Source: Oscillospiraceae bacterium (GTDB lineage: Bacteria > Bacillota > Clostridia > UBA1212 > SIG427). Taken from it: 64,000 bases of DNA. Location: contig SVJE01000002.1 of the NCBI GenBank assembly GCA_015069135.1, positions 105,953 to 169,952 on the forward strand. The letters are read 5' to 3'. A model generated the notes under the pieces. It saw only the letters and a program-made list of their open reading frames with translations. It was not told the DNA's origin and searched no databases. The translations under genes were made by a program, and so were the position numbers. This document shows positions 446 through 63,678 of this stretch, piece after piece (the stretch's first letter is position 1; each line of letters opens with the position of its first letter).

Positions 446-1568
446 GTCTGTATGTATTTTAAGATCAAATCCGGTCAGACCGGATTCCAGAGTTGAAAAA
501 GAGGCAATTTCTTTGATGAAGGAAGGGTACAAAGTAAATATTTTTGCCTGGGACAGGGATTCTGATTATAAGCCCAGGAAAGAAGAATTAGTTATTGGCG
601 AAACCAAAATACCGATCGTCAGGACAGGAATTAAGGCTTCGTTTGGGGAAGGTTTTAAAAATATTATTGCCTTTCTCAAATTTCAGCTATCAATGAGAAA
701 GTTTTTAAGGAGAAACAAGTTTGATATTATCCATGCTTGTGATTTTGACACAGCATTTTTTTCATATAAACTTGTTTTAAGGAAAAAAGAAAAATTTGTC
801 TTTGATATTTTTGATTTCGTTCATTCCAGACCAAAAAACTTTTTTCAGAAGCAGGTTAAAAAAGCTCAGTATGACATAATAAAAAAAGCTGATGCGACGA
901 TTATTTGTACAGAAGATAGGAAAAACCAGATTGAAGGTTCTGAACCTAAAAAATTAATTGTTGTACACAATACGCCTTCAGGAAACCATGTTATGGAAAA
1001 CGAATGTGAATCAGTAAACATTTCGGGTAGGATAAAGGTTGCTTATGTTGGCATTCTTCAAGGAAGTAGGCTCCTTGAAGAAATTGGTCTGTTTTTTTCA
1101 AAAAATCATGATGTTGAATTTCATATAGGTGGATTTGGTTTGCTAGAGGAATATTTCCAGGAACTTGCTGATAATAATGATAATATTTTTTTCCATGGAA
1201 GACTTTCATATCAGGAAACACTCAATCTTGAAAAAGATTGTGACATAATGTTGGCTATATATGATCCCAAAAGATCTAACCATATATATGCTGCACCCAA
1301 CAAATTCTATGAATCTCTATATTTGGGGAAACCATTACTTATGGTTAAAGGTACCGGAATGTCAACTGTATTGGCAGAAGAAAACATAGGTGAACTTATT
1401 GACTACAGTTATGATGGGTTTGAAAAAGGCCTGAGAGATTTAATAGACAGAAAAAATGAATGGTCAGAAATTTCTGAAAAAATGAAATCTTTGTATACAG
1501 AAAAATTCAGTTGGGAAATTATGGAGAAAAGACTGCTTGACTTATACAACAATCTTAGCAAAGTATAA
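438..1568 (+). CDS. Glycosyltransferase (GT4-like N-terminal domain plus GT1 C-terminal domain)
   Basis: ATG at 438 follows a GGAGA RBS and overlaps the upstream stop. The protein has a GT-B fold architecture and sits in the polysaccharide locus. Confidence 0.65.
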   Translation: MNKSVCILRSNPVRPDSRVEKEAISLMKEGYKVNIFAWDRDSDYKPRKEELVIGETKIPIVRTGIKASFGEGFKNIIAFLKFQLSMRKFLRRNKFDIIHACDFDTAFFSYKLVLRKKEKFVFDIFDFVHSRPKNFFQKQVKKAQYDIIKKADATIICTEDRKNQIEGSEPKKLIVVHNTPSGNHVMENECESVNISGRIKVAYVGILQGSRLLEEIGLFFSKNHDVEFHIGGFGLLEEYFQELADNNDNIFFHGRLSYQETLNLEKDCDIMLAIYDPKRSNHIYAAPNKFYESLYLGKPLLMVKGTGMSTVLAEENIGELIDYSYDGFEKGLRDLIDRKNEWSEISEKMKSLYTEKFSWEIMEKRLLDLYNNLSKV

Positions 1569-7641: not shown

Positions 7642-8729
7642 AAACTGTAATGCTTGTGTTCGGAACTCGCCCTGAAGCTATTAAAATGTGTCCGCTTGTT
7701 AATGAGCTTAAACAACGAAAAACAATAAATACTATTGTATGTGTTACAGGTCAACATCGCCAGATGTTGGACCAGGTTCTTGATGCTTTCAATGTTGTTC
7801 CTGAATATGATTTATCAATAATGAAGGAAAAACAAACACTTTTTGATATTACGACGAATATTTTACAGGATATAGGTGAAGTTCTTGAAAAAGTTAAGCC
7901 GGATGTGGTTTTAGTCCATGGTGATACTTCAACAACCTTTGTGACAGCGTTAGCCTGTTTTTATAAACAGATACCGGTAGGCCATGTAGAGGCCGGGTTA
8001 CGCACATATAATATCTATAGTCCATATCCTGAGGAATTTAATCGTCAGGCAGTGTCGATTATTTCAAAATACAATTTTGCTCCTACAAAACTTTCTAAGG
8101 CAAATTTGTTGCGTGAAGGAAAAGATGAAAGCACTATTTTTGTTACAGGAAACACTGCTATTGACGCTCTTAAAACCACTGTGAAAGATGATTATAGACA
8201 TCCGGAGCTTGATTGGGCGAAAGATAGTAGATTGATTCTAATTACTGCCCACAGAAGAGAAAATCTGGGTGAACCAATGCACAATATGTTCCGTGCCATT
8301 AGGAGAGTAATAGATGAACATCCGGATGTAAAGGCTATATATCCCATTCACATGAATCCGGTTGTGCGAGCTGCTGCTGATGAGGAATTGGGCGGTTGTG
8401 ATAAAATACGTATAATAGAGCCACTGGATGTACTTGATTTCCATAATTTTATGGCAAGGAGTTATATGATTCTTACAGACAGTGGAGGGATACAGGAGGA
8501 AGCACCATCTTTGGGTAAACCAGTTCTTGTTATGAGAGACACTACGGAACGCCCTGAGGGTATAGAGGCTGGTACGTTGAAACTTGTCGGCACAAATGAA
8601 CAAGTAATATACGATAATTTTAAATTATTGCTTGAAGATTACGAGGCATATGAAGCAATGTCAAAAGCAAGCAATCCATATGGCGATGGTTTTGCCAGTC
8701 AGCGGATTGCAGACATTCTTGAAATTTAG
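7638..8729 (+). CDS. wecB: UDP-N-acetylglucosamine 2-epimerase (non-hydrolysing)
   Basis: The N-terminus MKTVMLVFGTRPEAIKMCPLV is diagnostic, and the C-terminal HGDTSTT and DSGGIQEEAPSLGKPVLVMR motifs are present. Confidence 0.85.
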   Translation: MKTVMLVFGTRPEAIKMCPLVNELKQRKTINTIVCVTGQHRQMLDQVLDAFNVVPEYDLSIMKEKQTLFDITTNILQDIGEVLEKVKPDVVLVHGDTSTTFVTALACFYKQIPVGHVEAGLRTYNIYSPYPEEFNRQAVSIISKYNFAPTKLSKANLLREGKDESTIFVTGNTAIDALKTTVKDDYRHPELDWAKDSRLILITAHRRENLGEPMHNMFRAIRRVIDEHPDVKAIYPIHMNPVVRAAADEELGGCDKIRIIEPLDVLDFHNFMARSYMILTDSGGIQEEAPSLGKPVLVMRDTTERPEGIEAGTLKLVGTNEQVIYDNFKLLLEDYEAYEAMSKASNPYGDGFASQRIADILEI

Positions 8730-12041: not shown

Positions 12042-12087
12042 TTGACAATTACGATAATATCGTATATCGTATATACGATATTATCGT
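12042..12087 (+). promoter_or_regulatory. TTGACA -35 element followed by a 37-bp operator palindrome (perfect 16-bp arms ACGATAATATCGTATA / TATACGATATTATCGT) overlapping the -10 region of the higBA-like operon
   Basis: Read directly from the sequence. A palindrome at this position is the usual arrangement for TA autoregulation by the antitoxin. Confidence 0.5.
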
Positions 12088-12107
12088 AGTAGTAAAAGGA
12101 AAAACAA

Positions 12108-19126: not shown

Positions 19127-19702
19127 ATGGAACTTATTGATAGCTACGGATATTTTGCCATTGCCGCTTTAATAGCGGTTGAAAACATTTTTCCTCCAAT
19201 ACCTTCGGAGGTTATTTTAACTTTTGGTGGTTTTCTTACAACATACACATATATGACACCTGTGCAAGTGATTTTATGGAGTACGGTGGGGTCTTTGATT
19301 GGTGCGGTGGTTTTGTATTTTTTGGGATGGAAACTTCCTCCTGAGCGTATTGGTAAAATGCTTCGTTTTTCTACTGAAGAGGTAGCCGGAGCACAGCAGT
19401 GGTTTTTAAGAAGGGGACAGGTAAGTGTGCTCCTTTGCAGATGTGTCCCTATAATGAGAAGCCTGATTTCTGTTCCTGCAGGTATGACACGTATGAATAT
19501 GGTGAAGTTTTTTATATTAACAACCGTAGGCTCTGCAATCTGGAATACGGCCCTGATTCTTTTGGGTGCAGCAGCAGGGGAGTCCTGGACTATGATTGTG
19601 GAGTATCTGGGAGTGTATAGCTGGGTTGTGGCTGTAGGGTTGTCAGTGGGGATAGCGGTAATAATGATGGTCGTGGTGAGAAAGAAATTTAAAAAGAGCT
19701 GA
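19127..19702 (+). CDS. DedA family membrane protein
   Basis: The motif YGYFAIAALIAVENIFPPIPSEVIL is diagnostic of DedA/SNARE-associated proteins. Confidence 0.7.
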   Translation: MELIDSYGYFAIAALIAVENIFPPIPSEVILTFGGFLTTYTYMTPVQVILWSTVGSLIGAVVLYFLGWKLPPERIGKMLRFSTEEVAGAQQWFLRRGQVSVLLCRCVPIMRSLISVPAGMTRMNMVKFFILTTVGSAIWNTALILLGAAAGESWTMIVEYLGVYSWVVAVGLSVGIAVIMMVVVRKKFKKS

Positions 19703-19707
19703 CAATT

Positions 19708-19764
19708 AATGATATGTACCCTCCTTACTGGTTTGTCCAGTAAAGAGGGTACATATCATTTTTG
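19708..19764 (+). terminator. Intrinsic terminator (16-bp stem AATGATATGTACCCTC / GAGGGTACATATCATT with a nested inner hairpin)
   Basis: Long perfect stem followed by TTTT. Confidence 0.6.
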
Positions 19765-19905
19765 AGCCAGTCTTTTTGTGTATATGAACCAATCCATTAC
19801 TGAAATTATACTTGAATTATATATACGGCTTTGATAGAATGACATAAATGGAGTAGACGGAAACAATCCGCATAGTTAAATAATTGTTTTTTAGGAGGTT
19901 GTACA

Positions 19906-55752: not shown

Positions 55753-56718
55753 ATGAAAAAGACAATGAAACTGGCAGGAATTACTGCTTCAGTGGTAATA
55801 GGAGCCGGATTTGCCACCGGCAGAGAAATAAAAACATATTTTACAAGATACGGTAACCAAAGTTATTTGATTATAGCGGCGGTTGCCGTTTTGTTGTATG
55901 GAGCGATTCTGTTGCTTTTGTGGATGCCTCCGGGAAAAGGGAAGTTTATAGCTGTTCCTTATGTGTTTTTTTGTTATGTACTGATGTTGTCTGCTTTGGG
56001 AAAATTAATTGAAGATTACACCAGATTGCCGACGATTATTGGTATTTTAGCAGGCACCTTGATAGCTTTCCTGGGGCTTTTAGCCGGATTCAGTCGATTT
56101 ACTGTAATAAGTGGGGTGATCACCCCCTGTATAGCAACCCTATTAGTAATACTTTTGGTGAAGACGGGGGTCAGACCCTATGCTTGTAATTTGGTGGATT
56201 TTTCGACTTTTGAGTTAGTGGCTTCTACTGTAAAATTTGTTGGTTATAACTCTCTTTCTGCTTTAATTGTCTTGCCTGAAATTGGTCATCAATATACAAA
56301 AAAAGAAAAATTTATTGGAGCGGGAATAGGTGTTATTGGTTTTTCTATTTTAATTTTTATTATTAACATGATTTTTTTGAAAAATATCTCCTTGGTTGAA
56401 AATTGGGAAATGCCATTAATTCAGGCTATTTCTGCCGGAGGAAATATTCTTATTAGCATGTTTTCTGTATCTTTACTGTGTGTAATAATAGCTTTTTCTC
56501 TGTGTGGATCTGCCGTGGGTGTTTCCAGAATGTTATTACCGGGAAAGAATGAGTTTTTTATTGGTCTTGTTTTTATATTATTGGCAATGCCTTTGTCTTT
56601 ATTAGGATTTGGTAATCTTATGGACAATGTGTATCCTGTATTAGGATTTTTAGGTTCAGCTTTGATAATTTGGTTTGGATATAAATTTATAAGCGTGCAA
56701 TTTATAATTAGGGATTGA
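55753..56718 (+). CDS. YkvI family membrane protein
   Basis: The N-terminus ...VIGAGFATGREIKTYF resembles the YkvI motif (VGAGFASGQEI). Polytopic. Confidence 0.45.
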   Translation: MKKTMKLAGITASVVIGAGFATGREIKTYFTRYGNQSYLIIAAVAVLLYGAILLLLWMPPGKGKFIAVPYVFFCYVLMLSALGKLIEDYTRLPTIIGILAGTLIAFLGLLAGFSRFTVISGVITPCIATLLVILLVKTGVRPYACNLVDFSTFELVASTVKFVGYNSLSALIVLPEIGHQYTKKEKFIGAGIGVIGFSILIFIINMIFLKNISLVENWEMPLIQAISAGGNILISMFSVSLLCVIIAFSLCGSAVGVSRMLLPGKNEFFIGLVFILLAMPLSLLGFGNLMDNVYPVLGFLGSALIIWFGYKFISVQFIIRD

Positions 56719-56853
56719 CCCCCGTCCTTAAGTGAAATGTTGAATAAATAGTATATACAGTAAAAAAATTGTCATATAGTAATGTTTTTTGACATAAAAG
56801 AATATTTTTTGTTTAACAAAGATTGCTTTGTTTATGTATAAAGTGTTACTTAG

Positions 56854-56912
56854 ACCTGCCCCCTGTCCTGGATTGTTAGTTGCCTAGCAATCCAGGACGG
56901 GGGGCAGACCCC
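56854..56912. repeat. ~60-bp GC-rich palindrome built from two inverted copies of the CCAGGACGGGGGGCAGACC core (long form of the 27-bp palindrome family); a half-site GACCCCCGTCCTT also lies at 56717-56729
   Basis: Left arm GACCTGCCCCCTGTCCTGGATT and right arm AATCCAGGACGGGGGGCAGACC. The composition is strongly atypical for this AT-rich genome. Confidence 0.7.
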
Positions 56913-57020
56913 ATAACTTCTTGTTTTATGGTTATATTATGGCTGCTGCTATTGGGGTGCGATACTTGACGGTAAATAGTAAAAAGCTTATACTTTATTA
57001 AATAGAAAACAGGAGTATTT

Positions 57021-58205
57021 ATGGAAAAAACATTTGCAATAGATAAAAAGAAAATAATTATTATAGCTGCTATAGGAGTGGCGTTGATAATCGCAATTAT
57101 TCTTTTTGCTACAGGAATAGTAGGTGATCTGCTTGGCAAATGGGGAATTTTAAAAATTCAACCAGTAGAACCGAAAGTTACATTTTACGAATATATTCCA
57201 AAAGGTGATGGAGATGTTATTCTCCTTGATGACCAATTGTTGATTGCCGATCAGTCTGGGGTATCATGTTTTTCTGTTGACGGAACATGGCAGTGGAATA
57301 AAGAAATTAATTTGAAAGCCCCTGTTTTTATACCGGATGGTGAAGAAAAAACAGTTTTAGGAGACGTTGGAGGTAACGGAATATACGGTTTTAATGAGGA
57401 TGGGCTCCAATGGAATTATATTATTGACCGAGAAATCGTAAATATTTCTGAAAACACAGTAAATAATCAGATCATTATAATTCACGATGCAGACAACTAT
57501 TTGTCCGCCGCTACATTGGTGGATTATTCAAAAGAGGTAAAAGCAATTGCTACCCGTAAATTCGGTCAATATTATATGATATCTGCTTCTATGTCCCAAA
57601 ATGGTGAGCAAGCTGCAATTGTAGGTATCACCCCGGAAAGTGAAGAAACTTCTACAGTTATAGCATTTATGGATTTGCCGGGATATGAGTTTATTTCCAC
57701 AAAAACCATATCTAACGAATTTCTGCCGGTGGCATCTTATGTAAATGGCAATAACTTATTTTTAGCCGGAGGAGACAGTCTGAGGAGAGTTTTGGAAGAC
57801 AGTAGCTACACAAAACAAAATTCAGTAAATGATTTATTATGGGGTCGTGAAGGTGGCTCGGACACATTGGTGGCTGCAGGTAATACAGACGGTAAAAATT
57901 TTGTGACGGTGAGTACTGTCGCCGGTGCTGAAGCTGGTTTGGAGGCTTCAAGTGAAGTAAGACTGTACGCATCAGATGGAGCTTTGAAAGAATCTTTTAC
58001 CTGTGAGGGTGGTATCGAAGCGGTAAAACATTATGGTAAAATGATCGCTCTTTATGGTGAAAATGAGGTTTTTGTATATAATATATATGGTCAGCAAATC
58101 GGTAAATTTGATGGTGTTTCTCAAATCAGTGATATTGAGTTTATCTCTGAAAAAATCCTTGTGGTTTGTGGCACATCAAAAATCGCAAAGGTGGATTTTA
58201 GCTAA
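57021..58205 (+). CDS. Hypothetical membrane-anchored protein (N-terminal TM helix, repeated beta-rich modules, possibly a beta-propeller)
   Basis: Only the TM helix and a repetitive beta pattern are recognisable. Confidence 0.25.
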   Translation: MEKTFAIDKKKIIIIAAIGVALIIAIILFATGIVGDLLGKWGILKIQPVEPKVTFYEYIPKGDGDVILLDDQLLIADQSGVSCFSVDGTWQWNKEINLKAPVFIPDGEEKTVLGDVGGNGIYGFNEDGLQWNYIIDREIVNISENTVNNQIIIIHDADNYLSAATLVDYSKEVKAIATRKFGQYYMISASMSQNGEQAAIVGITPESEETSTVIAFMDLPGYEFISTKTISNEFLPVASYVNGNNLFLAGGDSLRRVLEDSSYTKQNSVNDLLWGREGGSDTLVAAGNTDGKNFVTVSTVAGAEAGLEASSEVRLYASDGALKESFTCEGGIEAVKHYGKMIALYGENEVFVYNIYGQQIGKFDGVSQISDIEFISEKILVVCGTSKIAKVDFS

Positions 58206-58891
58206 TGGCAATATCTGACATATTTATTATTATTATATTTCTTGTAACCGTAATTACTTGTACGGTAAAAGGTCTTGCACTTACATTGTATTCTGTGTTC
58301 TCTACAGCTATTTCTATAATAGGTGCTTTCCTTTTAAGACCATTCGTATCAGCCGGATTAATTTATATAGGAGCTGACAAGTTTTTCTACAAAACATTTT
58401 ACGAAGCTATCAACGCTGTAAGACTGGAGTGCTTCGGTAACTCCACAATAGGAACAGGTGCAAAATTAGCCACAGAATTAAATATACCTGATTTTGCAAA
58501 GGGTCTGCTGGAACATAATGTGAGAAGTTGGACCACATCAGGGTCATTGGATACTATAGTTGATGAAATGAGTACCTCTTTAGCTCAATTTGTGGTTAAT
58601 GCTATTTCGGTGATTCTTTTGATAATAATCATTATGATTGGTATGCATTTTTTAAAGAAAGTTCTTTCATTCTTTTCCAAAATACCGGTAATACGCCAGA
58701 TTAATAAACTGGGTGGATTTGTAATGGGTGTTATACTTGCTTTCTTCTGGATTTCGGTATTAGGTATGGTTGCCCATCTGTTTTCCACAGCAGAGTATTT
58801 TACCTACATTCTGGCTGACATTGAGAATTCGTTGATAGCGCACTATTTCTATAACACGAACTTTATAGCTTTGATTATTTCTCATCTGTAA
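58205..58891 (+). CDS. CvpA-like membrane protein
   Basis: Four TM helices, and the N-terminus ...IIIIFLVTVITCTVKGLALTLYSV is CvpA-like. Confidence 0.4.
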   Translation: MAISDIFIIIIFLVTVITCTVKGLALTLYSVFSTAISIIGAFLLRPFVSAGLIYIGADKFFYKTFYEAINAVRLECFGNSTIGTGAKLATELNIPDFAKGLLEHNVRSWTTSGSLDTIVDEMSTSLAQFVVNAISVILLIIIIMIGMHFLKKVLSFFSKIPVIRQINKLGGFVMGVILAFFWISVLGMVAHLFSTAEYFTYILADIENSLIAHYFYNTNFIALIISHL

Positions 58892-58961
58892 AATGTTATT
58901 TTTTGTACTAAAAAAACTCCGAATTAATCGGAGTTCTTTAGTCTAGCTCAATAATTTTTCT

Positions 58962-59207
58962 TTAAGATTTTCTCAATTCTTCAAGACAATCTTTACATAC
59001 CATGTGACCTTTGAAGTATATGGTGTCCCCGGCGTTACCACAGAAAGTGCAAGCAGGCTCGTATTTTTTCAAGAGTATGCTGTCACCGTCTACATATATT
59101 TCAAGAGAGTCTTTTTCTGATATGCCTAAAGTGCGACGTAACTCAATAGGTAAAACAACACGTCCTAAATCGTCAACACGACGTACAATTCCAGTGGACT
59201 TAATCAT
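58962..59207 (-). CDS. abrB: AbrB/SpoVT-family transition-state regulator with a C-terminal CxxC...CxxC tail
   Basis: MIKSTGIVRRVDDLGRVVLPIELRRTLGI is a canonical AbrB swapped-hairpin N-domain. Terminator at 58924-58948. Confidence 0.75.
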   Translation of the reverse strand: MIKSTGIVRRVDDLGRVVLPIELRRTLGISEKDSLEIYVDGDSILLKKYEPACTFCGNAGDTIYFKGHMVCKDCLEELRKS

Positions 59208-59383
59208 GAAAGCTGCCTCCTTCGTTTTTTAATGCCAACACATTATCATCATACTAATATAATTTAAAAAGTTTGTCAATAATTTCAAAAAAAATTACTA
59301 AATTTCAAGAAAAAATGCATAATTTTTGATATTTTTCCATAAATATATAAATATTTTTACTAAAAAAGGAAAAAGGTGGTAAA

Positions 59384-59959
59384 ATGCTTAACGCGGTTTG
59401 GCTATGTATGTTGGTGGTTGGAATCGGTTACGGATGCTTCAACGGAACTCTTTCGGAAACAGGAAATGCTCTTCTGGAAAGTGGTGGAAGTGCTGTTACT
59501 TTTGTGATAAGTATAATAGGAGTTACGGCTTTGTGGAGCGGTTTGTTGGAGGTTTTTCAAAAAGCCGGAGGAATCGTTTTTTTTTCACGGATAATAAGAA
59601 AACCAATAAGGTTCCTTTTACCGGGATGCAAGAACAACTTTGAAGCAGAAAAACAAGTGATCACCAATATAGCAGCTAATTTTTTTGGCCTTGGAAACGG
59701 AGCTACACCATCGGGTATTGAGGCGGTAAAAGAACTTCAACGATATAACGGTACCGACAATGCCACTTTTTCTGTAGGTATGTTTCTTGTTATGAATTCG
59801 GCTGCCTTTCAATTACTGCCTACAACAGTTTTGGCGCTAAGAACTGCTGCCGGAAGTAATTCGCCGACAGATATAATATTTCCGGTATGGATTGCATCTG
59901 CTGCGTCGTTAATAACAGGCATAGTTGTTTACCGGTTAATATCACGGAGGGTAAAATGA
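59384..59959 (+). CDS. spmA: Spore maturation protein A (nucleoside-recognition-domain membrane protein)
   Basis: MLNAVWLCMLVVGIGYG...; the spmA-spmB pair overlaps at ATGA. Confidence 0.75.
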   Translation: MLNAVWLCMLVVGIGYGCFNGTLSETGNALLESGGSAVTFVISIIGVTALWSGLLEVFQKAGGIVFFSRIIRKPIRFLLPGCKNNFEAEKQVITNIAANFFGLGNGATPSGIEAVKELQRYNGTDNATFSVGMFLVMNSAAFQLLPTTVLALRTAAGSNSPTDIIFPVWIASAASLITGIVVYRLISRRVK

Positions 59960-60465
59960 GTTTTATTTCCATAATACTTCTACCTTTTTTTGTTCTTGTA
60001 ATTCTATTATCCGCCTGGGTAAAAGGCACGGATTACTTTACTGATTTTACAGTCGGTGCAAAAAAGGGAATCTCTGCTATGGCAGGCATTTTACCGTCAC
60101 TTATAGGTTTGTTTGCGGCAATTACCGTGTTCCGAGCATCGGGAGCTATGGATGCAGTGGTGGCGATACTGGCTCCTTTGGGAAAATTCTTGGGAATTGA
60201 AAGCCCTTTGATTCCGTTGGTGCTTATGAGACCGGTATCCGGAAGTGCTTCACTTACAATTTTACAGGATATAACAACAACCTTTGGACCGGACAGTAAT
60301 GTAGGGAGAGCTGCTGCAGTTATGATGGGTTCCACAGAAACTGTTATATACACTTTGGCTGTATATATGAGTGGCAATGGCATAAAAAAGGCTCCGGGCG
60401 TGATGTTTTCTGCATTAATGGCGAATCTGGTTTCATCATTACTTGCTTGTTGGCTATGTTCGTAA
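59956..60465 (+). CDS. spmB: Spore maturation protein B
   Basis: GGAGGG RBS. The ATG overlaps the spmA stop. Polytopic. Confidence 0.75.
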   Translation: MSFISIILLPFFVLVILLSAWVKGTDYFTDFTVGAKKGISAMAGILPSLIGLFAAITVFRASGAMDAVVAILAPLGKFLGIESPLIPLVLMRPVSGSASLTILQDITTTFGPDSNVGRAAAVMMGSTETVIYTLAVYMSGNGIKKAPGVMFSALMANLVSSLLACWLCS

Positions 60466-61209
60466 AATGGTTTTTACAATAGCTCCTGTTTTTTTGTCAA
60501 AATAGTAGAGTTTGTAACCATCGAAATAAGGATATTCTTCTAAGGAAACACACTTATTAATCCACCTGAAAAGTTGATTACCTACGGACTGGGGTCTGGT
60601 CCCCGGTATACCAAGTATAAAGTATTTTTTTTGGATTTCGGTGGGTGCATACAGTCCTGTGAGAATATGATGATATTTTGGAAAAGCTAACTTTATTTCT
60701 TTAACAATTTCAGGAAAAGGTACTATATTTTCTTCCGCAAGGGTGCTTTTTAAAGCTGCAAGAGTTTCAACTTTGCCCCAGGAATAAGATGGGTTTGTAG
60801 TTTTAAAAGGATCAAAAGAATGATTAGACCCCATTGGTTCCTTTTTTTCTTTTTTTGGAATTTGAGTATGTAAGATAATTTCGTTATTGGAATTCATAAC
60901 TGCAAAACCATCAAATTTCAAGACGGGGGGCAGACCCCCGTCTTGAAAAGATGTATCTAAAAATCCTTTTAGGCCATGTGGTGTTTTGGATAAAAATATT
61001 TTACCGAGAATAAAAGGTTCCTCGATATTTAGGGAATCCCAGAGACATAATGAAACAAATTGTCCCACTTCAAAAGACAAATGTTCGACTACACATTGGA
61101 TTTTAATAAAGCTTTTGACGTGTCGAATAAAAACAAACCCCTTGCTTTGATGCAAGACAGGGGGCAGACCCCCGTCCTGAAAAAAGTGATAGCCAGCTTT
61201 AAGTTCCAT
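60454..61209 (-). CDS. Hypothetical 251-aa protein carrying two in-frame copies of the 27-bp GC-rich palindrome (each encoding QDGGLPPVL)
   Basis: Strong AAGGAGG RBS 9 nt upstream of the ATG. The ORF remains open across both GC-rich insertions. Confidence 0.35.
   Translation of the reverse strand: MELKAGYHFFQDGGLPPVLHQSKGFVFIRHVKSFIKIQCVVEHLSFEVGQFVSLCLWDSLNIEEPFILGKIFLSKTPHGLKGFLDTSFQDGGLPPVLKFDGFAVMNSNNEIILHTQIPKKEKKEPMGSNHSFDPFKTTNPSYSWGKVETLAALKSTLAEENIVPFPEIVKEIKLAFPKYHHILTGLYAPTEIQKKYFILGIPGTRPQSVGNQLFRWINKCVSLEEYPYFDGYKLYYFDKKTGAIVKTILRT
60919..60945. repeat. 27-bp GC-rich palindrome CAAGACGGGGGGCAGACCCCCGTCTTG (copy inside CDS 60454..61209)
   Basis: Read directly from the sequence. 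In frame and stop-free in all six frames. Confidence 0.8.
61153..61179. repeat. 27-bp GC-rich palindrome CAAGACAGGGGGCAGACCCCCGTCCTG (second copy inside CDS 60454..61209)
   Basis: Read directly from the sequence. In frame. Confidence 0.8.
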
Positions 61210-61302
61210 GGTTTACAACCTCCTTTTTTTAAAATATATGACAAGCTTTTCGGAATATGACGGACAACATGCGAATAGAATGCTACAGGAGGTATACAGG
61301 CT

Positions 61303-63678
61303 ATGTTTGAAAAGTTCAAAGGGTTGTCTTCGGCAAAAGCTGCGCAATTGTTAAGACAATATGGAAAAAATCAATTGGAAGATAAAAAGAAAAAGTCACC
61401 GATTAAACTTTTTCTTAATCAATTCACCGATATAATGGTAATAATTTTACTTGTTTGTACAATGATTTCAGCATTTCTCAACGACTGGATTGAAGCTATA
61501 GTGATGATTGCCATAGTGGTAATGAATGCTATTCTTGGTTTTATACAAGAATTCAGAACGGAAAAAACCATTGAAGCGTTGAATAAAATGAATAGCGCTA
61601 AGGCCACGGTTGTCCGAGACGGAAAACGAAAACAGGTTCCGGCAGATCAGCTTGTCCCCGGAGATGTTTGTCTGATTTTTACCGGTAATAAAGTGCCGGC
61701 GGATGGTAAAATTTTATCCGGTGAAGGACTTAGCTTTGACGAAGCAATACTTACAGGAGAGTCTGAACCCATAAGTAAAAATCAAGGTGAGGTTTTCATG
61801 GGAAGTTCAGTGCTTTCTGGCCATGGTGTAATCGAGATTATCTCTACCGGAAAAAATACAGAAATGGGTAAAATATCAAATTTAATACAGGAAGAAGATG
61901 CCGGAAATACACCATTACAAAAAAGATTAGCCAGAATGGGTAAATACATCGTGATTGCTTGCCTTATTGTCTGTATAGTGGTAACCATAGCCGGTCTGAT
62001 AAAAGGCACTGACCTTATTACTATGCTTCTTACCGGAATAAGTCTTGCAGCTGCCGCTGTACCTGAAGGATTGCCGGCAATAGTAACAATAGCGCTTACG
62101 TTGGGCGTAGGCCGGATGGCTATAAGAGGCGCCTTGGTACGAAGACTTCCGGCAGTGGAAACATTAGGTTCAACACAGGTAATCTGTTCAGACAAAACCG
62201 GAACATTAACCCAAAATCGAATGGCTGTAAAAGAAGTCCGAATATTCAGCAATATAGTTCCCATAGAAGATATTTTACGAGAATGCAACAACAAGGCAGA
62301 TAGTACAGAAAAAGCGTTGCTGGAATATTTTACCGAGAACTCAGGGGAAAAATATACCCGGTTGAAAGAAATTCCCTTTGACTCTGTTCGTAAAATGATG
62401 GAAGTTGAGGTTGAGAATTCCAGGGGACAACGAATGATATTTATAAAAGGTGCCCCTGAAAAACTGATTCCATCTACAGACACTAGGGCTTTGGCAGAAT
62501 GTCGCAAAATGGCGGAAAAAGGGCTGAGAATACTAGCTGCAGCATGTAAAACCCAAGACAGGGGGCAGACCCCCGTCCTGGTTGGTTTGGTTGGTTTGGC
62601 GGATCCCATAAGGCCTGAGGCAAAGACTGCTGTTGAAGAATGTAGAAATGCCGGCATCAAGACTGTGATGATTACAGGAGACCATAAATTGACGGCAAAA
62701 ACCATAGGAAAAGAATTGGGAATTTTACAGGAAGACAATCATATTCTGACAGGAGCGCAGTTGGATAACTTATCTGATAAAGAACTGGCGGAAAAGATTT
62801 CTCAAGTATCTGTTTTTGCCAGGGTACAACCAGCTCACAAATTAAGGATCGTAAAGGCATATCAGGCACAGGGCCTTGTTGTGGCAATGACAGGTGATGG
62901 TGTGAATGATGCTCCGGCTGTAAAAGCTGCGGATATAGGAATTGCTATGGGAGTAAACGGTACGGATGTAACGAGAGAAGCTTCGGATATGGTTTTAACA
63001 GATGATAATTTCGCAACTATTGCAGAGGCAGTTAAAGAAGGCAGGGGCATTTATGATAATATTAAAAAGTTTGTAAGATATATGCTGGCCTGCAACCTGG
63101 GTGAAGTTGTTACAATGTTTGCCGGAATACTGTGCGGTTTGCCATTGCCTCTGTTTCCCATTCAGGTGTTGTGGGTAAATCTGGCTACTGATGGTTTACC
63201 TGGAATTGCCTTGGGAATGGATAATGTGGAAGATGACATAATGAAAAGACCCCCGATTCCTCCAAAAGAAGGAATTTTTCACGGTAAAATGCTTCGTCAG
63301 ATTATAACGAGAGGTATTCTTATAGGTGGGTGCACATTAGGGGCTTTTTGTACACTGTCTTTTACAGGTGAAAAATTGGAAATAGCAAGAACTGCAGCTT
63401 TTGTGACCTTAGTGCTTACCCAGCTGGTGCACTCTTTTGAATGCCGGGAAAACCCGGACATAAGGGGAAATCTGTTTCTTGTGGCTTCGGTTGCATTGTC
63501 GTTTCTTATGATGTTGGCGGTTGTGTATATTCCGGCAATGCAGAGCATTTTTCACACATGCACTCTGGGTATATGGCACTGGGGAATAATATGTGGTTTT
63601 ACTGCTGTTGTGCCTTTGTTGGGCGGGCTTTTGGAAAGCATTTTTTCCTTTAGTAAAAAAGCCGGAAAATCCCTGTAA
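61303..63678 (+). CDS. P-type cation-transporting ATPase (type IIA, Ca2+-ATPase-like) carrying an in-frame 9-codon palindrome insertion
   Basis: DKTGTLT phosphorylation motif, TGES, MITGDHKLTA and VAMTGDGVNDAPAVKAADIGIAMG. GGAGG RBS. Confidence 0.85.
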   Translation: MFEKFKGLSSAKAAQLLRQYGKNQLEDKKKKSPIKLFLNQFTDIMVIILLVCTMISAFLNDWIEAIVMIAIVVMNAILGFIQEFRTEKTIEALNKMNSAKATVVRDGKRKQVPADQLVPGDVCLIFTGNKVPADGKILSGEGLSFDEAILTGESEPISKNQGEVFMGSSVLSGHGVIEIISTGKNTEMGKISNLIQEEDAGNTPLQKRLARMGKYIVIACLIVCIVVTIAGLIKGTDLITMLLTGISLAAAAVPEGLPAIVTIALTLGVGRMAIRGALVRRLPAVETLGSTQVICSDKTGTLTQNRMAVKEVRIFSNIVPIEDILRECNNKADSTEKALLEYFTENSGEKYTRLKEIPFDSVRKMMEVEVENSRGQRMIFIKGAPEKLIPSTDTRALAECRKMAEKGLRILAAACKTQDRGQTPVLVGLVGLADPIRPEAKTAVEECRNAGIKTVMITGDHKLTAKTIGKELGILQEDNHILTGAQLDNLSDKELAEKISQVSVFARVQPAHKLRIVKAYQAQGLVVAMTGDGVNDAPAVKAADIGIAMGVNGTDVTREASDMVLTDDNFATIAEAVKEGRGIYDNIKKFVRYMLACNLGEVVTMFAGILCGLPLPLFPIQVLWVNLATDGLPGIALGMDNVEDDIMKRPPIPPKEGIFHGKMLRQIITRGILIGGCTLGAFCTLSFTGEKLEIARTAAFVTLVLTQLVHSFECRENPDIRGNLFLVASVALSFLMMLAVVYIPAMQSIFHTCTLGIWHWGIICGFTAVVPLLGGLLESIFSFSKKAGKSL
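62554..62580. repeat. 27-bp GC-rich palindrome CAAGACAGGGGGCAGACCCCCGTCCTG inside the ATPase gene, encoding QDRGQTPVL in the hinge region before LVGLADPIRPE
   Basis: Identical in sequence to the copy at 61153-61179. In frame with the ATPase. Confidence 0.8.

Follow-up and report, generated by a model that had tools for sequence, protein, structure and literature searches.

Clustered, mostly intragenic hairpin repeats in a rumen Oscillospiraceae genome and their probable link to Y1 transposases

How the same GC-rich palindrome came to lie, in frame, inside several protein-coding genes of a low-GC genome is the question raised by a 64,000-nt stretch of DNA from an Oscillospiraceae bacterium (GenBank assembly GCA_015069135.1, contig SVJE01000002.1, positions 105,953–169,952 of the forward strand), here called the window. 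A first-pass annotation had read the palindromes as 27-bp elements, three of them inserted into genes as nine codons. The palindromes were found to form a repeat family that is clustered in one patch, occupies orthologous sites in related genomes and, judging from the alignments, evolves in concert; in other organisms the same motif lies beside Y1 transposase genes. We consider it fairly probable that they are non-autonomous hairpin repeats of the repetitive extragenic palindrome (REP)/terminal inverted repeat (TIR) class, associated with IS200-like Y1 (HUH) tyrosine transposases of the RayT/TIRYT type. Such an enzyme would have made the copies in the window genome and would maintain them.

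A local cluster of hairpin repeats

The three 27-nt palindromes first noticed (sites b, c and d) were confirmed in position, reading frame and translation (Table 1), and the shuffle expectation for them was 0 matches. That all six frames of the 27-mer are free of stop codons and that it lies in a low-GC setting (31–40% GC in the window) was confirmed as well. A position-weight scan of the whole window with a cut-off of 12 bits placed every match within 56160–62580 and none in 1–56000, at a shuffle mean of 0.42 matches per 64 kb. The copies thus form a local cluster, so that of the two possibilities raised earlier, a local hotspot or an abundant repeat, the hotspot holds within the 64 kb and an even abundance does not. 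The in-window copies span 6.4 kb; four of the seven clear copies lie in coding sequence, and a fifth, the half-site g that had also been noticed before, overlaps a stop codon as described. If the copies count as five independent loci, our own arithmetic gives a chance of about 5e-4 that a single tenth of the window contains them all.

The inverted, dimeric form of about 60 bp was likewise borne out: the arms of this doublet, f/e (56856–79 and 56884–907), are 92% complementary and form a hairpin with a 24-bp stem at 56856–56907, with a DNA fold of -26.5 kcal/mol (z = -8.5). A 169-kb metagenome contig of the same organism contains three further copies outside the window (472–498, 578–597 and 696–715 of stretch L001, at about window coordinate 70.5–70.7 kb, a position also given as about 8 kb past the window end). 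The first two form a second inverted doublet, a2/a1 (fold -30.1 kcal/mol), which is paralogous to f/e and shares with it the partner-specific variant CAGGTCT. At least 11 copies, two inverted doublets among them, lie within about 14.6 kb. Identical copies were present in nine independent assemblies of the organism (JGI, ENA, Logan), which ruled out an assembly or adapter artefact.

The unit common to the copies of the window and of three syntenic relatives (L080, L081 and L082) was shown to be about 20 nt long, CARGACRGGGGNCAGACCCC, with an optional right arm CGTCYTG, and not 27 nt as first proposed. In its 20–27 nt, outer arms AAGACRGGGG and CCCCYGTCTT enclose the apical part GGGG-N-CAGA-CCCC; where N is T, the core GACGGGGGTC-A-GACCCCCGTC forms a palindrome of 21 bp without mismatch. 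CGTC, or TGTC in variants, stands at the end of the unit, which has a loop of 5 nt, a stem of 11 bp and no CCA tail. Site d folds with -17.4 kcal/mol (z = -9.3), and at sites b and c the minus strand has two G-T pairs where the plus strand has A-C mismatches. When 17 copies taken from different organisms were aligned, none differed in its four inner G-C pairs or in the central CAG of the loop, and seven of the 11 stem pairs varied on both sides. The covariation score of these copies, which were chosen by hand and are therefore subject to selection, was 0.257 compared with 0.119 in shuffles, and 0 of 500 shuffles reached it. The peptides read in frame are rich in Gly and Pro (QDGG[QL][TPS]PVL, TGVRP).

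No intrinsic terminator was detected in 56500–57200 (0 terminator-like sites), the doublet has no T-run and the intragenic copies are followed by A-runs or coding sequence; a reading as terminators was rejected. Rfam gave only spurious hairpin matches far below the gathering threshold. CRISPR repeats were rejected because there are no spacers, and dif or att sites because the copies are too many and intragenic. The window also contains two unrelated long inverted repeats, at 19691–19777 (41-nt arms, 78%) and 12042–12096 (26-nt arms, 88% complementarity).

Table 1. Copies of the repeat and their host genes in the window, and Y1 transposase genes next to the motif at metagenome loci.
Feature	Stretch	Position	Strand	Sequence	Context
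Site h, degenerate copy	Window	56160–56179	+	GAAGACGGGGGTCAGACCCT	Inside membrane-protein open reading frame (ORF) 55753–56718; encodes KTGVRP; 30.7 bits
Site g, half-site	Window	56710–56729	-	GACCCCCGTCCTT on + strand	Overlaps TGA stop of ORF 55753–56718 (half-site portion 56717–56729); 18.9 bits
Inverted doublet f/e, REPIN-like	Window	56851–56912		f, minus strand: CAGGACAGGGGGCAGGTCTA; e, plus strand: CAGGACGGGGGGCAGACCCC	
Weak match, uncertain	Window	60584–60603	+	GGGGACCAGACCCC on coding (minus) strand	Encodes conserved IPGTRP of the 251-amino-acid (aa) protein; 15.6 bits
Site d, perfect 27-nt palindrome	Window	60919–60945	+	CAAGACGGGGGGCAGACCCCCGTCTTG	Inside minus-strand gene 60454–61209; QDGGLPPVL, residues 89–97
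Site c, same 27-mer as in the ATPase	Window	61153–61179	+	CAAGACAGGGGGCAGACCCCCGTCCTG	Inside gene 60454–61209; QDGGLPPVL, residues 11–19
Site b, 27-mer	Window	62554–62580	+	CAAGACAGGGGGCAGACCCCCGTCCTG	Inside Ca-ATPase gene 61303–63678; QDRGQTPVL
321-aa membrane protein	Window	55753–56718	+		Carries site h; site g at stop codon
Sigma-70-like promoter TTGACG-17-TATACT	Window	56966–56994	+		Promoter of DUF5711 gene (57021–58205); 10 of 12 consensus positions
251-aa conserved hypothetical protein	Window	60454–61209	-		MBE7056289.1 (NCBI), Ruminococcaceae/Oscillospiraceae metagenome-assembled genome (MAG); carries sites c and d
P-type (Ca) ATPase	Window	61303–63678	+		Carries site b
Y1 gene	L105	896–1639			E = 3e-14; 27-mer array at 3′ end
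Y1 gene	L160	3994–4701			E = 5e-13; inverted pair ~70 nt upstream
Y1 gene	L147				Inverted pair upstream, single copy downstream

The score of the weak match in Table 1 falls within the range of the shuffles (maximum 21 bits). At the orthologous positions of L080 (1442) and L081 (9175), where the conserved protein motif GIPG(D/T)RP is encoded, the sequence is exactly GGGGACAGACCCC, an exact match to the repeat core. This match may represent native coding sequence and chance codon usage, or an anciently exapted copy.

Age and length of the occupied sites

The ATPases of the syntenic relatives L080, L081 and L082 are 80, 77 and 74% identical to that of the window, and these genomes carry the motif at the same sites; a recent, lineage-specific insertion is contradicted by this. 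L081 carries it at all sites covered (h, g, the doublet, c, d and b). There the core of site h is kept as GGGGTCAGACCC, site g has a full core and a tandem duplication, and doublet f/e is kept with three compensatory pair changes in a spacer whose remainder could not be aligned. At site b the motif is present in L080 and L082, inverted exactly in its loop in L081 (ACAGA in L080, TCTGT in L081) and decayed in L178. Site d is occupied in L081, L178 and L179 and lacks the motif, without a change in length, in L080, L082 and L177; at site c a decayed palindrome was found in L177 and a deletion in L179. Four-fold degenerate sites of the ATPase are only 31–38% identical between these genomes, so neutral sites are essentially saturated. 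The motif sites are thus old, being occupied at the same places in species that have reached this saturation.

Within the window genome, the paralogous copies a1, b, c and d are identical at 24–27 of 27 positions, and b, c and d of L081 at 22–24. Comparison of the window with L081 showed 20–23 identical positions for orthologues and 19–23 for non-orthologous pairs. Paralogues are thus more alike than orthologues, which is the pattern to be expected of concerted evolution.

The reading as a 9-codon insertion failed, because relatives without the motif have segments of equal length. In the ATPase, the three closest homologues carry the motif (QDGGQTPVL, IGGLSPVL and TAGGQTPVL), and L177, in which the ATPase is 73% identical and the gene order is shared, has exactly 27 nt of unrelated sequence at site b, encoding SEESKNTVL. 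The V-L codons of this sequence, GTCTTG, equal the right arm of the element. Site b lies where the N and P domains are hinged, directly ahead of GLVGLADPIRP and its VGLVGLADPIRP strand. Comparison with a solved Ca-ATPase structure, LMCA1 of Listeria (6zhf), showed no net 9-codon insertion, the Listeria protein being only one residue shorter at site b (KLEDE-QDIVLVGL aligned to KTQDRGQTPVLVGL). Furthermore, L177 has a QAGSHP loop of the same length at site h, and at site c the loop length is unchanged in nearly all of the 15 homologues known for the 251-aa protein. Only two events were found to add length: one at site d in L178 (+7 aa), where a clean 21-nt unit, GCCGGGGGACAGACCCCCGGC, was inserted beside an older decayed copy, and one at site c of the window (+12 nt, +4 aa).

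The use of L177 as an element-free outgroup with 'empty sites' was withdrawn, as its ATPase is 73% identical to that of the window compared with 74% for L082, and its motif-free sites may be decayed copies. In the five to eight genomes compared, equal-length sites without the motif may be fully decayed old copies or may never have been occupied. An SpmA-like gene of L080 (597–616) and L082 (2290–2309) was observed to contain a motif site encoding TGVRP (site j); at this site the window and L081 have a longer unrelated loop and L177 has a non-motif loop of the same length.

The 251-aa protein that carries two copies belongs to a small family (15 clusters), whose neighbours in the loci examined are spmA/spmB-like Gate-domain genes and the Ca-ATPase; the exact protein was read on 23 contigs, and its 15 homologues lie in conserved synteny. 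No Pfam match was obtained for it, and a fold search against PDB gave no significant match. In an AlphaFold model with a mean predicted local distance difference test (pLDDT) of 82, the N-terminal half is beta-rich, site c is placed in a beta-hairpin loop (residues 13–20, pLDDT <50) and site d in a loop between strands 79–89 and 101–105. The promoter of the DUF5711 gene lies about 55 nt downstream of doublet f/e and is kept in L081. A gene pair encoding SbcD-like (Metallophos) and SbcC-like (AAA_23) proteins adjoins the second doublet (L001 820–3865, about window coordinate 67.3–70.4 kb). These are hairpin-cleaving nucleases, and their position is probably a coincidence.

The motif beside Y1 transposase genes and in other organisms

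A metagenome scan with ARGACRGGGGNCAGACCCC as query was evaluated for 80 of the 90 matching stretches (462 kb), and the contigs of the window organism were not among the matches listed. At three independent loci (L105, L160 and L147) a gene with the PF01797 Y1_Tnp domain was found within about 250 nt of the motif (Table 1). A profile (HMM) scan detected Y1 genes in the 462 kb of DNA recovered with the motif, compared with 0 in 508 kb of mostly chance matches to the 17-mer core. The tblastn queries, IS200 TnpA and E. coli RayT, were approximate, and only matches confirmed by Pfam were used. The protein of L105 has 3082 homologues of about 250 aa, which are named 'REP element-mobilizing transposase RayT' (JGI) or 'transposase [Clostridia bacterium]' (NCBI). 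Contigs with such Y1 genes are mostly only 1–5 kb long, which suggests that the genes or their flanking repeats break metagenome assemblies and would hence be multi-copy. Besides, L147 (13 kb) contains about 20 and L160 (8.5 kb) about eight copies of the perfect palindrome GGGGTCAGACCCC, mostly as inverted pairs 37–45 nt apart around the Y1 gene. These two contigs (54–56% GC) thus hold a dense population of the same core resembling REPINs, the hairpins formed by REP doublets.

Y1 genes of rumen Clostridia MAGs (L173, L175) and of L180 from metagenome Ga0123353 have flanking inverted repeats that start with the same arm, AAGACAGGGG, and have another loop, GGGGACGGTTCT. Hairpins with this conserved loop make up a second family (L173 202/1029, L175 9937/10764, L180 939/1753 and L174 9938; also L096, L117 and L161). 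It forms the inverted terminal repeats of the ~250-aa Y1 genes, its left copy overlaps the TTGACA -35 box, and its stems covary (gaca/tgtc, gcag/ctgc, caca/tgtg). This family is absent from the window.

Many of the matches listed came from metagenome Ga0123353 (JGI 3300010167), representing one or several organisms. Its 27-mer, TAAGACAGGGGACAGACCCCTGTCTTA, differs from the window consensus in two compensatory stem pairs and occurs as singles, as inverted pairs, as stuttered nested arm fragments and in a 21-nt tandem array. The array (L102 7274–7382, contig Ga0123353_10004504) consists of at least five head-to-tail 21-nt units, GTAGGACAGGGGACAGACCCC, and reaches the end of the locus. Stuttered nested left-arm fragments (AAGACAG, AAGACAGGG, AAGACAGGGG) were seen at L105 830–900, L083 1–110, L084 7385–7435 and L173 170–225, where they pile up beside full units and at the left end of Y1 genes. 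Their appearance suggests repeated abortive cleavage and joining. Another organism has in-frame copies of the same repeat family in AddB and RACo. In a Eubacterium sp. MAG (L060, CAUCXT010000013, 41% GC) a 55-nt near-perfect palindrome lies at 7921–7975, directly downstream of a gene and a terminator-like hairpin; its central 21 nt equal the window core GACAGGGGGCAGACCCCCGTC, including the same arm mismatch.

No match to the 17-mer core was found in viral contigs, and the 70 matches in a genome collection that does not include the window genome were nearly all single chance matches in GC-rich genomes. A BLAST search of plasmids with the 39-nt element gave only chance matches in Streptomyces. 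A literature search with the core sequences retrieved no paper, and repeats of this kind in Clostridia are described neither in PMC3733652 nor in PMC6006769 or PMC5581495. A description of such a repeat family for Clostridia was not found in the searchable literature, as the first-pass annotation had supposed.

TIRYT genes (TnpA-Y1 subclass 2.1/RAYT group 1) have flanking inverted repeats that share the motif GGGGWSAS (PMC3733652, PMC6006769), and the associated repeats occur in moderate abundance, each family including singles, dimers or clusters (Di Nocera et al., 2013, PMC3733652; Quentin et al., 2018, PMC6006769). Group 1 RAYTs have been reported in Clostridia (PMC5581495). The family described here resembles these TIRs (TIRtrons) in its arrangement as singles, inverted dimers and clusters, in the self-complementarity of some units, and in its partner, a Y1 transposase of about 250 aa with a C-terminal extension that by eye appears to be helix-turn-helix-like. 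The GGGGWSAS motif is fully contained in the cores of the relatives (GGGGTCAG or GGGGACAG) and in site h, which reads GGGGTCAG; the window variant GGGGGCAG fits at seven of eight positions, with G at the W position. No target-site duplications flank the copies (AAATTT/AAAAGA, TTGATG/AAAAAA and AAAACC/GTTGGT are not direct repeats), as in TIRYT TIRs and as expected of Y1 and not of DDE enzymes. Unlike published TIRtrons, which come from other phyla, most in-window copies are intragenic, a TIRYT gene is absent from the DNA read of the window genome, and sites have been occupied for a long time with concerted evolution, a behaviour not described for TIRYT TIRs in the literature searched.

The first-pass annotation had compared the element with Rickettsia palindromic elements (RPEs) and, more distantly, with REP and Correia repeats. 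REP- and RPE-type repeats were indeed the nearest, but the gain of residues typical of RPEs was mostly not seen, and the target-site duplication of Correia and other DDE elements was not found. With the REPs and REPINs of E. coli and Pseudomonas the family shares short (20–40 nt) GC-rich imperfect palindromes, inverted doublets that close into a single long hairpin, inheritance by vertical descent, G-T pairs on one of the strands and a Y1 transposase as presumed mobiliser; it differs in its low-GC Clostridia host and in copies that are neither extragenic nor dispersed nor shown to be of high copy number. Intragenic REPs are known (PMC3733652), and repeats ending in CGTC or TGTC have been reported without a dedicated transposase (PMC3733652, PMC6006769, PMC5581495). 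Such CGTC-tagged REPs, including the Rickettsia elements RPE-4 and RPE-6, resemble the window unit in their end and in a loop of 4–5 nt. They differ in a stem of 8–9 bp and in a CCA tail, and the window motif, in contrast to them, adjoins Y1 genes at three loci. RPEs also lie in frame and are translated, and some genes contain two copies; their insertions, however, add residues compared with orthologues, which the window copies mostly do not. Correia elements and other DDE-type miniature inverted-repeat transposable elements likewise are short and non-autonomous, amount in essence to two inverted ends and can undergo co-transcription or translation; the window unit is far shorter (27 nt), lacks their target-site duplication and has an HUH/Y1 partner enzyme.

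Uptake signal sequences and DNA uptake sequences occupy variable protein loops with no change of length and in both orientations, and between genes they occur as inverted pairs. The window copies behave in genes in the same way, with inverted pairs between genes, and in this respect only; uptake sequences occur at about one per kb genome-wide, whereas the window motif, which is much longer, keeps to a patch of about 15 kb.

Origin and maintenance of the copies

According to the reading as Y1-associated REP/TIR repeats, the unit would fold as a single-stranded DNA hairpin, the form that the enzyme family suggests would be bound and cut. Copies would have been seeded into a patch of about 15 kb in an ancestor of this Oscillospiraceae clade and inherited vertically since then. 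They may have been tolerated in genes because they are free of stop codons in all frames, encode Gly/Pro-rich peptides and fall in surface loops. The copies are no passive relics: as they are near-identical within a genome while neutral sites are saturated, some continuing process must re-copy or correct them at the same sites. Candidates are re-insertion into old copies by the transposase, conversion of short patches between copies, and self-templated correction from one hairpin arm to the other.

Several observations weigh against this reading. The proposed link to a RAYT or IS200-like transposase held for the motif elsewhere, but no Y1 gene was found by tblastn and HMM search in the approximately 90 kb read from the window genome and its relatives (window, L001–L009, L080–82 and L176–179). 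The Clostridia Y1 genes inspected are flanked by a related but different hairpin, with a loop of the GGGGACGGTTCT and not of the CAGACCCC type. The GTAG/GTGG tag of REPs is absent from the window copies, which are preceded by TTTC, GATG, AACC and GGCC (GTAA or GTAG was seen only in the variant of Ga0123353). The copies keep to about 15 kb, the other 56 kb being free of them, compared with the dispersed extragenic location of classical REPs. Loops with and without the motif are equal in length at the window sites b, c, d and h as well as at site j in SpmA (L080, L082), a result that a simple insertion model does not predict, and occupation of the same sites beyond neutral saturation is not explained by transposition alone. 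The reading accounts neither for the clustering of the copies in one patch nor for their long persistence at fixed sites. Because of the missing Y1 gene, the strict clustering and the unchanged length at most intragenic sites, two other explanations stay alive.

One of these is that the hairpins are regional dyad sites selected by the host and bound by a chromosomal or RNA-binding protein, like parS, ram or matS clusters or REP-like mRNA-stabilising stem-loops, so that purifying selection without present mobility would keep them. The core kept at orthologous sites despite saturated four-fold sites, the intergenic doublet kept with compensatory changes in unalignable surroundings just upstream of a conserved promoter, and the restriction to about 15 kb are in line with such sites, as are the equal lengths, known for uptake-signal-type motifs arising in place, and the fixation of identical copies in nine assemblies. 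Sites b and c, however, agree at all 27 positions, two arm mismatches among them, which argues for copying rather than independent selection, and where sites have been lost (site d from L080 and L082, sites b, d and h from L177) there is no sign of replacement nearby. Since the motif is also found beside Y1 genes and in stuttered arrays in unrelated organisms, and no candidate binding protein, Rfam family or terminator signature was identified, we regard host selection as unlikely. The other explanation requires no transposase: a quasi-palindrome that arose once would have spread and been homogenised locally by template switching at replication forks, or by repair of hairpin breaks (e.g. by SbcCD) from nearby copies. 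It would account for the inverted loop of the ATPase orthologues, arm changes that are always compensatory, local tandem duplications and deletions (site g of L081, site c of L179, the additional 12 nt at site c of the window), the strictly local spread, the native coding origin of the right arm in the ATPase and the SbcCD-like gene pair next to the second doublet. Template switching within a hairpin, however, cannot put the same 20-nt sequence at 10 or more separate loci, ectopic repair between repeats of 20–27 nt would be very inefficient under homology requirements, and the same core occurs in distant taxa of 33–75% GC, where it is tied to Y1 genes. This explanation therefore appears quite improbable.

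That the GC-rich segments are ordinary ancestral coding sequence for Gly-Gly-x-x-Pro loops, alike by coincidence, would agree with the QDGG..P-like loop of the same length at site c in most homologues of the 251-aa protein and with the conserved PGDRP motif, which natively reads GGGGACAGACCCC. Unrelated genes and intergenic DNA also contain identical copies, on either strand, and given the shuffle expectation of 0 for the 27-mer, the position-weight scan and the covariation of the palindrome this possibility is effectively refuted. A further model, offered tentatively and as rather unlikely, departs from the reading as Y1-associated repeats in that the hairpin motif is not inserted but repeatedly rewritten onto fixed loops and intergenic spots of one patch, with length unchanged. 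This could occur as a sequence-specific overwriting of, or homing to, old copies, driven by a Y1 transposase or by hairpin-acting repair, and would keep regional marks for longer than neutral sites survive, possibly for use by the host.

Nearly all work on REP/TIR repeats and their Y1 transposases has concerned Proteobacteria, and the class is now shown in a rumen Oscillospiraceae lineage. The class itself is known; what is unusual is that the copies, in a Clostridia lineage, lie mostly inside genes, are clustered locally and evolve in concert at persistent sites. Most in-window copies are translated in real proteins (the Ca-ATPase, the membrane protein and the conserved hypothetical protein), and the combination of persistent sites, likeness among paralogues and mostly unchanged length is unexplained by models of REP or RPE insertion and decay. 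Since the motif adjoins Y1 genes at three loci and its units end in CGTC or TGTC, the results hint at a transposase partner for repeats that had been reported without a dedicated enzyme. In addition, the motif offers a convenient way to recognise this clade in rumen metagenomes.

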